IMG/VR virus record: IMGVR_UViG_3300033153_014375
Source: a virus
Direction: 5' to 3' (one strand)
DNA: 12,830 nt
The notes below the pieces were generated by a model. The model was given only the letters and a program-made list of their open reading frames with translations, did not search any database and was not told the origin of the DNA. Made by a program: the position numbers and the translations under genes. This document shows positions 3,136-9,516 of the stretch, in pieces; position 1 is the stretch's first letter; each line of letters starts with the position of its first letter.

Positions 3136-3155
3136 ACTAAAAGGATAGTCTCCAT
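3136..3155 (+). promoter_or_regulatory. Recurring motif copy 2, CTACTAAAAGGATAGTCTCCAT, overlapping the RBS and start codon of the UDG gene
   Basis: The 13-mer GGATAGTCTCCAT is identical to 2006-2018. The motif's terminal AT joins G3156 to form the ATG start codon at 3154-3156. Confidence 0.35.
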
Positions 3156-3987
3156 GCCGACTGATCAAGAGCTGATCGACGAGTACGATCGATACTTCAA
3201 CTACTACAGGAACCAACGCCTGGAGTGTGGAGTGCCATCAGTGTATGAGGCCTACTGGATGGGTCACATCGCAGGGTTACTGAGACGTACTGGTCAGAAG
3301 GTGGACCCAAAGTTCACTGAGTGGCTCAACGATCCATGTATGACTCGATACCACTCCCCTGAGAACACCTACCAAAGAATAGTGGAGGAGATCAGCCTCT
3401 GCAGGAACTGTGAGCTCCACCAGCACCGCAACAAGACAGTGCCTGGTGACGGACCTCTGCGTGCCACACTGATGGTAGTAGCTGAGGCACCTGGAGCTGA
3501 TGAGGATGCAGCAGGTATATGTCTGGTAGGTAAGGCTGGAGTCGAGCTGTTCCAGGAACTATTCCTGAAGCTGAAGGGGTGGGCTCGTGAACGCATGTTC
3601 GTAGCCAACACCCTGAAGTGTCGCCCGCCCGGGAACCGTGACCCTAAACCCGAGGAGGTACGGGCGTGTCACCACTTCCTTCACCGCCAGATCATGCTGG
3701 TAGGTCCCAAGGTAATCATAGCTGCCGGTAAGTATGCCGGCGCGTGGTTCACTGGGCAAGATGCATGGAGTCAGAAGACAACACTCAAGGGAATGATGGG
3801 CAAGGTGCATTGGTACCAGCACATTCCTGTGTTGGTAATGCCACATCCAGCTGGTTGGCTTCGCCAGAAGAACACCGACAAGGACAAGCGCAAGCCCTAT
3901 GACATGGGACCCTACATCTGGGATGCCCTCAACAAGGTGGAACAGATAATCAACACGCCGTTCAGCTCAGAGTTCTGGAGCAAGTAA
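3154..3987 (+). CDS. udg: Uracil-DNA glycosylase, family 4 (4Fe-4S type), with a roughly 85-aa N-terminal extension of unknown function
   Basis: The family-4 UDG signature is present: VVAEAPGADED (the GE[A/G]PG..E motif), FVANTLKCRPPGNRDP..EE..AC, and HPAG near the C-terminus. Four cysteines are positioned for a 4Fe-4S cluster (CRNCELH, KCRPP, ACHH). The AAGGA RBS has a 9-nt spacer. Confidence 0.8.
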   Translation: MPTDQELIDEYDRYFNYYRNQRLECGVPSVYEAYWMGHIAGLLRRTGQKVDPKFTEWLNDPCMTRYHSPENTYQRIVEEISLCRNCELHQHRNKTVPGDGPLRATLMVVAEAPGADEDAAGICLVGKAGVELFQELFLKLKGWARERMFVANTLKCRPPGNRDPKPEEVRACHHFLHRQIMLVGPKVIIAAGKYAGAWFTGQDAWSQKTTLKGMMGKVHWYQHIPVLVMPHPAGWLRQKNTDKDKRKPYDMGPYIWDALNKVEQIINTPFSSEFWSK

Positions 3988-4301
3988 TGACCAGAAATGA
4001 GGTGCACACTCTGTTCCACACCTATGATGGCAAGTATGTTTACAATGGCATAAACATGGGTGGCAAAGCAACGTTGGTCTCAGAAGCCGATAACATTCTT
4101 GTCATTAAGTGGCCTGGGCACACCTACTACTCAAACGTTCTGGAACCAAAGGTGTACTACTCACCAAAGATCCAAGTACTTCAGCTGGAATCCAAGTGGA
4201 AGAAGGTAGGTGAAGAGAGTGTGCAGCACTTGTTTGGTAGCAAAAAGTCAGTGCTGGCAAAGCTACTGATCGAATGGGAAGTCACCAGGAAGAAGTCCTG
4301 A
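3987..4301 (+). CDS. Hypothetical protein (104 aa)
   Basis: Its ATG overlaps the UDG stop (TAATG), and GGAG lies 7 nt upstream. The strand and codon usage are consistent with the operon. Confidence 0.55.
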   Translation: MTRNEVHTLFHTYDGKYVYNGINMGGKATLVSEADNILVIKWPGHTYYSNVLEPKVYYSPKIQVLQLESKWKKVGEESVQHLFGSKKSVLAKLLIEWEVTRKKS

Positions 4302-4350
4302 CCCTCCTTTCCCTTTGTCCCTCTCAGATTTCTTGAGGACATATTCTGTG

Positions 4351-4587
4351 GCCAAGCAAACCGTGGCCCTAAAAGGCAAGAAGCTTTACTACCCGAAGGA
4401 CTATCCGGAGAAGGGTGACAAGCTGGCCGGAACAGTACTGGAACAGATCACGCCACTGGAAGCATGTGATCAGCATGGTGACTGTCCTGGCCCAATAGTC
4501 AACTTCGAGTGGGAACACGGTAAGGTACGCAGAGAGTGCATGTACATGTTAATCAGGGGCAAGAAGTTTCAGTTGCGAGACGCATGA
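4351..4587 (+). CDS. Hypothetical small protein (~78 aa from GTG 4351; the ORF track begins this frame at TTG 4315)
   Basis: There is no in-frame ATG until near the end of the frame. GTG at 4351 has GAGGA 7 nt upstream. The stop TGA overlaps the helicase ATG (ATGA at 4584-4587), indicating translational coupling. Start assignment is uncertain. Confidence 0.4.
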   Translation, partial: AKQTVALKGKKLYYPKDYPEKGDKLAGTVLEQITPLEACDQHGDCPGPIVNFEWEHGKVRRECMYMLIRGKKFQLRDA

Positions 4588-7865: not shown

Positions 7866-8034
7866 GAAGTGTTCGTGTGGTCGTTCGTCTCAAACATTCA
7901 AGGAGCTGGATCTGGATGCTCACCAGCTCAAGGAACTAACAGGGAGTGATACGAAGGACATATACACATCTGTGTGGGAATGTCCAAACTGCCAGCGGCA
8001 GTACCAGATAAGCATTGAACCCGAGGAGGACTGA
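7852..8034 (+). CDS. Mini zinc-ribbon protein (60 aa; CxC ... CxxC)
   Basis: MLLPEKCSCG...WECPNCQ. GGAGG at 7841-7845 lies 6 nt before the ATG at 7852. An ATG at 7846 is also in frame but abuts the SD. Confidence 0.55.
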   Translation: MLLPEKCSCGRSSQTFKELDLDAHQLKELTGSDTKDIYTSVWECPNCQRQYQISIEPEED

Positions 8035-8234
8035 TGTACACTTTGCAGCCTATCCTTGGCTCATGTTGTCCACGTTGCAACAACGAAATAGCACTACTAA
8101 AGAGAGATGAATGCAGTCCATCGTTCCATGTATGTAAGTGCAGTTACATCGAAGAGTTAGGTGTGGGCCAAGTACCAGAAGTACTAGCTACAGGTACCAC
8201 ACTCCGGTTTCGTGATGAGGACGATGAACAGTGA
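8034..8234 (+). CDS. Small Cys-rich (zinc-binding?) protein, 66 aa
   Basis: CCPRC ... CSPSFHVCKC. The ATG overlaps the upstream stop (TGATG), and GAGGAGG lies just upstream. Confidence 0.5.
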   Translation: MYTLQPILGSCCPRCNNEIALLKRDECSPSFHVCKCSYIEELGVGQVPEVLATGTTLRFRDEDDEQ

Positions 8235-8434
8235 GACGCATATCCTACAAGAACATGCCACCAAGACTGTTGCTGACTCCGATGGTACTCGCCGCATTCT
8301 TGCTGGATTATTACAAGGCACCAGGCTGGGCCTGGGGTATCTGGGGCACGATATCAGTGCTAGACCTAATGATGTGGTTGCATGCGTTGGCCACTAGTAA
8401 GTCAACTGACCTGTTCGAGAGGCACAAGAAATGA
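8231..8434 (+). CDS. Small hydrophobic, Trp-rich membrane protein (59-67 aa; GTG at 8231 or ATG at 8255)
   Basis: One predicted TM helix (LLLTPMVLAAFLL, GWAWGIWGTISVL). The stop overlaps the ligase ATG (ATGA at 8431-8434), supporting this frame over the alternative ORF at 8212-8397. Confidence 0.45.
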   Translation: MRRISYKNMPPRLLLTPMVLAAFLLDYYKAPGWAWGIWGTISVLDLMMWLHALATSKSTDLFERHKK

Positions 8435-9516
8435 AGCCCAAGACTCTATACCACTGTTCAAAAGATGGATCCATTGTACAGTGGACCATCTGGACAGAAG
8501 GTGCCCAGATCCACACCAAGCATGGCCAAGTAAATGGTGCAATGACACCGTCCATGACGACTGCCAAGGGGAAGAACATCGGTCGTAGCAACGAGACATC
8601 GCCTGAAGAGCAGGCAGTCAAGCAGGCTGAGGCCAAGTACAAGAAGAGGCTCGAGGGCAAGTACAGTCTGACACAGGAAGCTGCAAAGGCCCCGGTGTTT
8701 CTGCCAATGCTAGCTCACCCGTTTGACAAGGTGAAGCCAGAGAAGATTACCTATCCTGTGGACATGCAGCCCAAGTTGAATGGGGTGCGATGTCTTGCCA
8801 GTTGGGACGGCGACCGAATCCGGCTGATGAGCAGGGGTGGCAAGGAGTACAACATACCTCACCTGAAGGCAGACATCGCCGGGTTCCTGGACAAGGACAG
8901 GGTACTGGACGGAGAGATCTACCTTCACGGCATAAGCTTCCAGGCAGTGACCAGACTGGTAAAGAAGTACCGTGAAGGTATCGATGGTACCGATTGCCTA
9001 CAGCTGTGGGTTTACGATACCTTCGAGAAGGATCATATCAACATATCATGGGTAAAGAGACGAGGTCAGCTGACCAAACTGAAGATCGGCCAGTGCAAGT
9101 CAGTAATCAAGGTTGCCTGCCAAGTAGTGAACACAAAGGTTGAGGTGATGATAGCTCAGGCCAGATACGTACAGGAAGGGTACGAGGGTGGCATTGTGAG
9201 GTTACGCGATGGCACCTACGAGTTGGGCCATAGATCCAGGGGCCTGTTGAAGGTCAAGAGTTTCAAGGATCAGGAGTACCTGATAGTGGGCTACGAGAAT
9301 GGTATCGGCAGGTTTGAGGACTGCGTGATCTGGAAGTGCCGGACACCTGAAGGTAAGGAGTTCAAGGTCGTGCCAAAGGGCACGTTAGCTGACAAGAGGT
9401 TCTGGTATCAGGAAGCAGACAGCCATGTAGGAGAAATGTTGACTGTGAAGTATTTCGAACTTACAGAGGACGGAATTCCTCAGTTCCCGGTCGGGCTCGG
9501 TTTGAGGGTGGACTAA
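8431..9516 (+). CDS. lig: ATP-dependent DNA ligase, minimal Chlorella-virus/T7-like NTase+OB type, with a roughly 100-aa N-terminal extra domain
   Basis: Motif I is PKLNGVR (KxNG instead of KxDG). Motif Ia is LMSRGGKEYN. Motif III is LDGEIYLHG. Motif IV is EGGIVRLRDG. Motif V is LLKVKSFKD. Motif VI is PQFPVGLGLR. All are in canonical order and spacing relative to ChVLig, recalled from memory. The SD is GAGAGG. Confidence 0.8.
   Translation: MKPKTLYHCSKDGSIVQWTIWTEGAQIHTKHGQVNGAMTPSMTTAKGKNIGRSNETSPEEQAVKQAEAKYKKRLEGKYSLTQEAAKAPVFLPMLAHPFDKVKPEKITYPVDMQPKLNGVRCLASWDGDRIRLMSRGGKEYNIPHLKADIAGFLDKDRVLDGEIYLHGISFQAVTRLVKKYREGIDGTDCLQLWVYDTFEKDHINISWVKRRGQLTKLKIGQCKSVIKVACQVVNTKVEVMIAQARYVQEGYEGGIVRLRDGTYELGHRSRGLLKVKSFKDQEYLIVGYENGIGRFEDCVIWKCRTPEGKEFKVVPKGTLADKRFWYQEADSHVGEMLTVKYFELTEDGIPQFPVGLGLRVD

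Follow-up and report, generated by a model that had tools for sequence, protein, structure and literature searches.

The window analyzed here, a 12,830-nucleotide stretch of viral DNA (IMG/VR record IMGVR_UViG_3300033153_014375), encodes a uracil-DNA glycosylase (UDG), an SF2 helicase, a DUF932 protein, a metallophosphoesterase (MPE) and an ATP-dependent DNA ligase within one tight group of genes. [quoted passage not shown] We find that the block is an ordinary phage replication and repair operon of a new lineage found only in metagenomes, with a resemblance to the Lhr-Core/MPE/Exo/Lig cluster that lies in the enzyme classes and reflects neither common ancestry nor a conserved architecture.

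Organization of the gene block

The block consists of 11 co-oriented genes on the plus strand (3154-9953), with overlaps at 9 of the 10 junctions. TAATG overlaps mark the starts of a 104-aa open reading frame (ORF; 3987), the MPE gene (7263) and the final gene (9516), and ATGA overlaps those of the helicase (4584) and ligase (8431) genes, while two small ORFs begin with a TGATG (8034) and a GTGA (8231) overlap. Two further overlaps are longer: that at 6136 spans 17 nt and that at 7852 spans 14 nt, and an AGGAGG accompanies each. The sole true gap lies between 4301 and the next start (4315-4363, probably GTG 4348). The sequence-only reading was thus right in seeing one compact gene unit and right about most of the coupling. 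Its count of nine coupled genes in 3154-9516 was not, since this range holds 10 genes and the block has 11 and extends to 9953, and the junction types also differ from those it named. Because overlaps are the usual junction type of phage operons, the junctions found here do not go beyond expectation.

Non-coding stretches flank the block, 461 nt long on the upstream side and 302 nt long on the downstream side. Upstream, a strong intrinsic terminator (1609..1634, plus strand; an 11-bp stem with 8 G-C pairs, followed by a T-run) lies 3' of an MVP-like gene and delimits the transcription unit at its 5' end. An analogous GC hairpin with a T-run follows the MVP gene in two related loci (L089 and L095). 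The 302-nt gap past the block contains a sigma-70-like promoter match (10191..10219, plus strand) 5' of the gene at 10256, identified by consensus match only (10 of 12 positions). No AP endonuclease that would complete a base-excision pathway was identified in the window.

Enzymes of the block and the bacterial ligase-associated cluster

The protein family assigned to each of the main genes by the sequence-only reading was confirmed by profile and structure searches. The first gene (3154..3987, plus strand) encodes a family-4 (Fe-S) UDG, scoring 142 bits against TIGR00758 (cutoff 125) and E = 1.3e-28 against Pfam UDG. The four Fe-S cysteines (Cys83, Cys86, Cys156 and Cys172), motif A ((G/A)EAPG; EAPG at 111-114) and motif B (HPA, with His231) are invariant in five relatives, and this set of cysteines and catalytic motifs is common to the UDGs of Thermotoga (TM0511), Thermus and Sulfolobus. 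Unlike other family-4 UDGs, the phage enzyme has a conserved C-terminal FW motif and a conserved N-terminal domain (residues 1-70; 3154-3363). An N-terminal extension had been noted before at about 85 aa; it exists, but is about 70 aa long, as alignments to solved family-4 UDGs begin at residues 69-73 (residue 73 for the best solved match, 4zbx, 9e-33). The extension is conserved in the five relatives aligned. When searched alone, it was found in only three representative clusters (50% identity) in 1.84 billion proteins, always N-terminal to a UDG. The domain is real and restricted to this lineage, and is a point of value of the block. An intein interrupts one UDG homologue (P0137).

The SF2 helicase (4584..6152, plus strand; 522 aa, of which about 145 form an N-terminal region) matches Pfam ResIII and Helicase_C as well as phrog_16 (E = 2e-60). 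Its best matches are XPBII (1.9e-24, the best solved), UvsW (8.7e-10) and RadD, and its top NCBIfam matches are RadD and XPB. It is not a member of the XPB/Rad25 family: it scores 33 bits against the NCBIfam XPB equivalog NF045503 (cutoff 610), it lacks the RED motif, having by inspection TGTDFRN after motif III with the Arg alone kept, and the modelled fold of its partner resembles no nuclease. The core domains are nonetheless nearest to XPBII.

The MPE (7263..7865, plus strand) has the DxH, GD, GNH(D/E), H and GHxH metal-binding motifs and the fold of the binuclear metallophosphoesterase superfamily, and its catalytic residues are invariant among homologues. Its nearest solved relative is aq_1665 of Aquifex aeolicus (PDB 1xm7); since aq_1665 has no known function, this match provides a fold and a clade for the MPE, and no substrate. 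The ATP-dependent ligase (8431..9516, plus strand; 361 aa) has adenylation and OB_2 domains, with about 90 residues N-terminal to them. DNA_ligase_A_M (68.7 bits) and OB_2 (39.2 bits), both above their cutoffs, are its only Pfam matches, and it also matches phrog_114 (E = 1e-71). Motifs I, III, IV and V, among them KLNG (Lys115), LDGEIY, EGGIVR and LLKVK, are invariant in five homologues. Its top NCBIfam match, PRK09125, reaches 91 bits, below the 200-bit cutoff of that model, and it matches the ligases of ASFV (1.7e-32) and of the Chlorella virus PBCV-1. By its predicted domain content and these matches, it is a small two-domain ligase of the viral or LigE-like type. Judged from the sequences, the catalytic motifs of UDG, MPE and ligase are all intact.

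What the block has in common with the bacterial cluster is that genes for an SF2 helicase, a small binuclear MPE and an ATP-dependent ligase lie together, and that the MPEs of both have the metal ligands and a general-acid His. The proposal that the block is a phage-adapted relative of this DNA-damage-response cluster, with the DUF932 protein replacing the exonuclease, is nevertheless highly improbable, as all four NCBIfam models fail. The helicase reaches 23 bits against TIGR04121 (Lhr; cutoff 850), through its generic C-terminal domain only, and is XPB/UvsW/RadD-like, whereas Lhr-Core is about 800 aa long. PdeM (TIGR04123) is the top NCBIfam match of the MPE, but at 37 bits (cutoff 150) the MPE falls outside the PdeM clade of the P. 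putida MPE (6nvo) and is placed in the aq_1665 clade. Against the 526-position TIGR04120 model (cutoff 400), the ligase scores 32 bits. No match to Lactamase_B or TIGR04122, indicative of a metallo-beta-lactamase (MBL) exonuclease, was found among the window proteins in Pfam and NCBIfam scans. Gene order differs from that of the bacterial cluster, and the gene set is not conserved in phage relatives, in which MPE and ligase can be missing or rearranged (see below). Kinship with the bacterial cluster was thus rejected by criteria set beforehand, on the profiles of helicase and ligase and on the unconserved gene order, and the block does not add phages to the known range of the bacterial ligase-associated repair system.

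The block is closer to known phage modules. Like those with accessory SF2 helicases (T4 UvsW; PHROG 16), it is made up of co-oriented, overlapping early/middle DNA-transaction genes, and its ligase matches phage ATP-dependent ligases (PHROG 114) besides the ASFV and Chlorella virus enzymes. It differs from known phage replication and repair modules in that its core adds a DUF932 protein and a UDG whose N-terminal domain is novel.

Conserved and variable parts of the block

No close relative was found among 50,697 deposited phage genomes. The relatives are about eight metagenomic loci, mostly short contigs, that are syntenic at 45-66% amino-acid identity. The order MVP-UDG-g90-helicase-DUF932 is found in four of them (L002, L003, L089 and L095), and the helicase-DUF932 order also in L001, L088, L090 and L096. 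The g90 gene (4348..4587, plus strand), 5' of the helicase gene, encodes a conserved small protein with homologues (45-51% identity) at the equivalent position in the first four loci. Its start is uncertain (TTG 4315, GTG 4348 or GTG 4363), with a GAGGA preceding GTG 4348. The 104-aa ORF upstream of it (3987..4301, plus strand) has no assigned function and no homologue in the relatives.

Gene order past DUF932 was judged on the six loci that extend beyond this gene, the window included. It is not conserved among them, contrary to what kinship with the bacterial cluster would lead one to expect: an MPE is present in three of the six and a ligase in four. Apart from the window, the MPE was found only in L089 and L095 and in two short fragments (L001 and L096). 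It lies immediately 3' of DUF932 in the window and L095 alone of the six, a junction also seen in the two fragments, while about 870 nt separate the two genes in L089. L002 and L090 have no ligase; homologues of the window genes at 10256-11939 directly follow DUF932 there. Longer relatives of the lineage encode a family-A DNA polymerase, and in L002 and L095 the polymerase and a glycosyltransferase are found downstream. None of the partner genes was present at 60 distant helicase loci.

Among relatives, the first part of the block is thus conserved and the second is present, absent or rearranged. Position 3154-9953 is probably one packed early/middle DNA-metabolism operon of an uncultured lineage of tailed phages, and a mosaic of two evolutionary units. 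The conserved core would comprise the UDG with its N-terminal domain, the small conserved protein, the helicase and DUF932, and the accessory cassette the aq_1665-type MPE, variable mini-ORFs and the viral-type ligase. Two of the mini-ORFs are Zn-ribbon-like: a 60-aa ORF (7852..8034, plus strand; CxC...CxxC), with an AAGGAGG 6 nt 5' of its start, and a 66-aa ORF (8034..8234, plus strand; CxxC...CxC). A third, of 67 aa (8231..8434, plus strand), has two putative transmembrane segments, hydrophobic stretches judged by eye. The final gene of the overlapping block encodes a Cys-rich protein of 145 aa (9516..9953, plus strand). Searches for homologues of the 60-aa and the 145-aa ORF found none. In the mechanism that we propose, the UDG would clear phage DNA of uracil; the helicase, probably with DUF932, may remodel forks or recombination intermediates, by comparison with UvsW and RecG-type SF2 enzymes; the MPE would trim or dephosphorylate DNA ends; and the ligase would seal the nicks left by the MPE as well as Okazaki nicks.

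Other phage backbones also carry the MPE and ligase cassette. A DNA ligase is usually found within 2.4 kb of the closest MPE homologues: 1.7 kb 5' of the MPE in L094, on a backbone with RecA, dCMP deaminase and DNA methylase, 1.9 kb past it in L239, and, as an NAD-dependent enzyme, 0.7-0.8 kb 3' of it in L097, L098 and L100. An MPE was near 5 of 80 ligase loci compared to none of 140 DUF932 or helicase loci (Fisher estimate p ~0.006, with loci that were not dereplicated). In the wider families, the linkage is weak, seen at 8 of the 80 MPE loci and at 5 of the 80 ligase loci. That the MPE is instead a protein phosphatase, or a phosphodiesterase acting on nucleotides or lipids, and forms no "healing and sealing" pair with the ligase, we consider somewhat unlikely. 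Its next structural neighbors include LpxH and MJ0936, but also the nucleases Mre11/SbcD, PolD DP1 and the P. putida MPE. Moreover, the His of GNHD, the counterpart of the general acid essential in the P. putida MPE, is invariant, and ligases of either class accompany the closest homologues. An aq_1665-type MPE travelling with ATP- or NAD-dependent ligases on several phage backbones hints at a pair for end cleaning and sealing, and at a substrate class for aq_1665, an orphan protein of structural genomics.

The helicase and the DUF932 protein

The DUF932/TIGR03299-family protein (6136..7263, plus strand) was correctly called, marginally by Pfam (PF06067, 23.3 bits, with the gathering score at 23.0), and more clearly by phrog_1362 (E = 7e-34) and by the fold it has in common with phage DUF932 proteins (Foldseek against BFVD, E = 1.5e-18, TM 0.72). 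Its homologues bear precomputed PF06067 matches. A good model compared to solved structures matched no fold, and the modelled fold is not that of an MBL. To our knowledge, no role and no solved fold are known for the DUF932 family. Its polar residues include an invariant constellation (D165, S224-E225, C242-x-N244-G245 and H260), in which the NSExG, VCTNG and H motifs are common to distant DUF932 members; it could form a new catalytic or DNA-binding site in a fold that has no solved relative.

DUF932 directly follows the helicase in 8 of 8 related loci. Its Shine-Dalgarno sequence, AGGAGGG (6121..6127, plus strand), lies within helicase codons (K-E-G), 8 nt 5' of the ATG, a motif and spacing maintained in 7 of the 8, and the overlap between the two genes ranges from 17 to about 235 nt. 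DUF932 had been described as holding a fixed place between the helicase and the phosphoesterase and as filling an "exonuclease slot". The helicase side of this claim stands in all eight loci. The MPE side does not and there is no such slot, since gene order past DUF932 is not conserved.

The apparent coupling of DUF932 expression to a helicase gene is found only in this lineage; elsewhere the surroundings of DUF932 genes vary between early regions, recombination genes and ICEs, with no helicase adjacent and no consistent enzyme neighbor. These observations bear on two readings of the pair. One is a dedicated two-protein machine, the functional heart of the block, in which DUF932 acts as a DNA-processing or loading partner comparable to that in XPB-Bax1. 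The conserved order, internal Shine-Dalgarno sequence and overlaps are consistent with it, as are the invariant constellation and the recombination and replication genes (RecT, PD-(D/E)XK, MBL and RepO) among the neighbors of DUF932 in other phages. So are the nearest solved relatives of the helicase, the XPBII entries 6p4f and 6p4w, which we take to be XPB-Bax1 complexes. As in archaeal XPBII-Bax1, a conserved partner gene lies immediately 3' of the helicase gene. Unlike archaeal XPB, however, the phage helicase lacks the conserved RED motif and falls far below the NF045503 cutoff, and the DUF932 model has no structural similarity to Bax1 or any nuclease. We hold such a machine to be a tentative and unlikely reading. 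The other reading assigns DUF932 an early function unrelated to the adjoining enzymes, such as host takeover or counter-defence, with its position due to descent only. In other phages, DUF932 heads early operons beside repressor/integrase switches; it is common on integrated plasmids and present on conjugative elements, in one preprint a DUF932 gene is reported to be under selection following phage challenge, and the inconsistent neighbors fit as well. Yet the start inside the helicase gene and the conserved Shine-Dalgarno sequence suggest co-expression, and we found no PADLOC match and no anti-defence evidence for the lineage, leaving this reading quite improbable.

It is likewise doubtful that helicase and DUF932 form an obligate co-translated pair in this lineage, with DUF932 as the DNA-transaction partner of the helicase. 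If true, such a pair would provide the first functional anchor for the DUF932/TIGR03299 family of phages, plasmids and ICEs, to which E. coli YfjQ and YafZ presumably belong. The conserved pair is the one mildly new lead of the block, and its embedded start makes it a concrete lead to the function of a protein common on mobile elements. The helicase gene of one relative (L003) is interrupted by an intein, and inteins tend toward functionally important replication and repair proteins.

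Organization of the block and family assignments

The window is a complete 12,830-nt JGI metagenome contig, since the identical MPE protein (P0017) is listed on a contig of just that length. All plausible genes of the window lie on the + strand, and eleven ORFs fall within 3154–9953. They encode a family-4 uracil-DNA glycosylase (UDG, 3154–3987), a 104-aa protein (3987–4301), a small conserved protein (g90, ending at 4587), an SF2 helicase (4584–6152), a DUF932 protein (6136–7263), a metallophosphoesterase (MPE, 7263–7865), three mini-ORF products (7852–8034, 8034–8234 and 8231–8434), an ATP-dependent DNA ligase (8431–9516) and a 145-aa protein (g145, 9516–9953). 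The block sits between a 461-nt and a 302-nt non-coding gap, with a strong terminator (1609–1634) after the gene upstream of it and a promoter-like site (10191–10219) after the block. Neighboring genes meet at TAATG (3987, 7263 and 9516), ATGA (4584 and 8431), TGATG (8034) and GTGA (8231) junctions, or through longer overlaps (17 nt at 6136, 14 nt at 7852), both preceded by AGGAGG; the single true gap inside the block follows 4301. The sequence-only reading had nine genes linked by ATGA, TAATG or TGATG overlaps, which is roughly right but only approximate because of these other junction types and the gap, and there are eleven ORFs. Overlaps of the ATGA/TAATG type are the usual junctions in phage operons.

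Two of the mini-ORFs (7852–8434) have Zn-ribbon-like cysteine patterns, and the 67-aa one shows hydrophobic stretches with two apparent membrane segments by eye. Homologues of these mini-ORFs were not found, and the MPE-ligase interval of the relatives holds different small ORFs. Neither Rfam models nor a tRNA search matched anything in the window, and PADLOC gave generic helicase-domain matches only.

The UDG scored 142 bits against TIGR00758 (cutoff 125), with 4zbx as its best solved match (9e-33) and with invariant catalytic motifs and four invariant Fe-S cysteines; it is a bona fide family-4 enzyme. The helicase carries ResIII and Helicase_C domains, its closest solved relatives being XPBII (1.9e-24), Rad25/XPB, T4 UvsW (8.7e-10) and RadD. 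The DUF932 protein passed its Pfam threshold marginally (23.3 vs 23.0 bits) and matched phrog_1362 at 7e-34. Its family profile had no matches among PDB sequences; its AlphaFold model was good (pLDDT 84, pTM 0.80), and TM reached 0.72 when it was aligned to phage DUF932, TIGR03299 and DUF945 proteins. Every binuclear-center motif of the MPE is invariant, and its family profile matched aq_1665 (1xm7) at 3.4e-26 and the P. putida MPE at 1e-3. The 361-aa ligase has adenylation and OB_2 domains and an invariant KLNG as motif I, is nearest to the ASFV (1.7e-32) and Chlorella virus ligases, and has PRK09125 as its top NCBIfam model (91 bits vs that model's 200-bit cutoff).

The UDG N-terminal extension, initially put at about 85 residues, proved real, with residues 1–70 as the conserved stretch; these are strongly conserved in four relatives. 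A search of 1.84 billion representative proteins returned just three clusters with this extension; in all of them it precedes a family-4 UDG, and an intein interrupts one. The extension is real and lineage-specific. A UDG homologue with the same extension, P0137 (543 aa), is interrupted by an intein.

A conserved core and a variable insert

A megablast search with the full window matched none of 50,697 phage records, and there are no cultured phages similar to it at the DNA level. IMG/VR single-protein scans with the DUF932 and MPE proteins yielded no relatives, and a scan with the DUF932 alignment across 185,579 species genomes revealed neither a prophage nor a host clue. The relatives come only from a protein database and a metagenome scan; they show 45–66% amino-acid identity and were compared by tblastn and phmmer, and synteny was read from tblastn hits, HMM hits and database gene calls.

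In the window, the helicase is followed by DUF932, MPE, three small ORFs, ligase, g145, g134 and g386. Of the related metagenomic loci, L095 (33 kb) has helicase, DUF932, 88 nt, MPE, five small ORFs and ligase, with a glycosyltransferase and PolA further on, and L089 has helicase, DUF932, ~870 nt of other ORFs, MPE, a small ORF and ligase. L003 runs from an intein-containing helicase through DUF932 and three small ORFs to the ligase, without MPE, while L002 (18.6 kb covered) lacks both MPE and ligase and proceeds from helicase and DUF932 to g134, g386 and, further on, PolA. L090 reads helicase, DUF932, g134, g386, and L088 and L096 show helicase and DUF932. An MVP-like (Major Vault Protein) gene, UDG and g90 lie upstream of the helicase in every contig long enough. 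Because of this order across the compared loci, the conserved unit is UDG-g90-helicase-DUF932; MPE and ligase make up an insert that varies among loci, with DUF932 on one side and a g134 homologue on the other. The intein lies in the L003 helicase homologue (3882–6785; 967 aa; Pfam Intein_splicing). The 386-aa g386 (10779–11939, +) has homologues in L002, L090 and L095 and a conserved N-terminal region; its C-terminal half is of low complexity and rich in proline. Local GC content there climbs to 0.61.

No other feature of the block is as distinctive as the helicase-DUF932 junction, yet it is lineage-specific. In 7/8 loci, AGGAGGG lies 8 nt upstream of the DUF932 ATG, within helicase codons, and the helicase stop falls 17, 37, 52 or ~200–235 nt inside DUF932, depending on the locus. 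In the long-overlap loci the codons of the conserved DUF932 N-terminus also encode, in a different frame, an Arg/Gly-rich helicase tail; this tail may be functional or may simply result from high GC content. The helicase ORF extends ~200–235 nt beyond the DUF932 start in L002 (7513–7748), L003 (6562–6785), L089 (9980–10188) and L095 (8816–9018), unlike the window with its 17 nt. A general linkage of DUF932 to helicases was tested and dropped. For ten other DUF932 clusters, from 80 viral loci and four metagenome loci (L004–L007), none of 52 neighboring proteins was a helicase, MPE or ligase; the neighbors included RecT, PD-(D/E)XK, MBL, RepO, dUTPase and DUF1653. Nor was DUF932 found at 60 loci of more distant helicase homologues.

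Close MPE homologues (at least 43% identity) lie near ligases on other phage backbones. The ligase lies 1.7 kb upstream of MPE in L094, a phage with RecA, dCMP deaminase and methylase, and 1.9 kb downstream in L239, which has no DUF932 upstream; in L097, L098 and L100 an NAD-dependent LigA lies 0.7–0.8 kb downstream, with an RNA ligase further on. Any ligase within 8 kb was found at 8/80 MPE loci, and an MPE of this type within 6 kb at 5/80 ligase loci, the latter a modest enrichment over 0/140 control loci (p ~0.006, a Fisher estimate on loci that were not dereplicated); L240 and one 4-kb contig had none. Across the wider families the link is thus only weak, and a general association of the ligase with MPE was dropped. 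That the two act as an end-cleaning and sealing pair is plausible but unproven. L097 (10001–14891), L098 and L100 represent another phage group, in which the array MPE, Zn ribbon, two small ORFs, NAD-dependent DNA ligase and, later, RNA ligase heads a long rightward operon; in L097 too, a Zn_ribbon_8 protein directly follows MPE.

Comparison with the bacterial ligase-associated cluster

The block had been proposed to be a phage-adapted relative of the bacterial ligase-associated system, with DUF932 in place of the exonuclease. That cluster consists of Exo, Lig, Lhr-Core and MPE (PMC7826289). The window helicase is not of the Lhr clade (23 bits against TIGR04121, where 850 are required, in a match confined to the generic C-terminal domain). 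The window MPE falls outside the cluster's MPE clade, its top NCBIfam match being TIGR04123 (PdeM) but at 37 of 150 bits, and the ligase falls outside the ligase clade (32 of 400 bits against TIGR04120). The window has no MBL exonuclease, and the neighborhood is not conserved among its relatives. Kinship thus failed on every testable feature of membership: the three clades, the exonuclease and the neighborhood. The likeness is one of enzyme classes only, an analogy that many repair loci share. The observation of a repair/replication gene block was itself largely correct, but its reading as a relative of the ligase-associated system is not supported. The operon is an ordinary one for phage replication and repair, mosaic in make-up and from a new, uncultured lineage. 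What novelty is left lies in the UDG N-terminal domain, in the conserved pairing of helicase and DUF932, and in an aq_1665-type MPE that travels with ligases.

The MVP-like gene and the upstream region

The ORF at 14–1585 (+), open at the contig start, is MVP-like (Pfam MVP_shoulder 4.7e-26, Vault_3 5.4e-8). It covers only the C-terminal ~520 aa; homologues have 859–886 aa (L002 22–2682, L089 4252–6867, L095 3418–5997). All relatives whose contigs reach this far carry the gene immediately before the UDG-helicase-DUF932 core, and a strong terminator lies 3' of it. The protein had no match in PHROG. The first report of MVP homologues in phages, a 2023 preprint (10.1101/2023.11.10.566534), concerned two gut phages; the window's lineage is environmental and distinct from those. 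After the vault domains, the protein has a coiled-coil-looking stretch by eye.

In the non-coding gap past the MVP terminator, a 23-nt inverted repeat (1653–1675/1805–1827) is 91% complementary, its arms 129 nt apart. A 212-aa ORF (2054–2692, +), which separates the MVP-like gene from the DNA-metabolism block, matches phrog_1491, 'tail fiber protein', at 4.6e-12; the relatives lack it. Tandem GTGTCAAGT/GTGTTGA-like motifs (2886–2935) occur in the 461-nt gap that precedes the UDG, as does a long GC hairpin (GGGGCGGGG...CCCCGCCCC, 3041–3118) followed by TTTATTAAA. Conservation of this region was tested and rejected; the relatives do not conserve it, and the folding z-score was only -2.0. In L095, the 33-kb relative, the MVP-like gene is preceded by a gene (760–1797) whose product matches Pfam ARPP-1 (PF20208).
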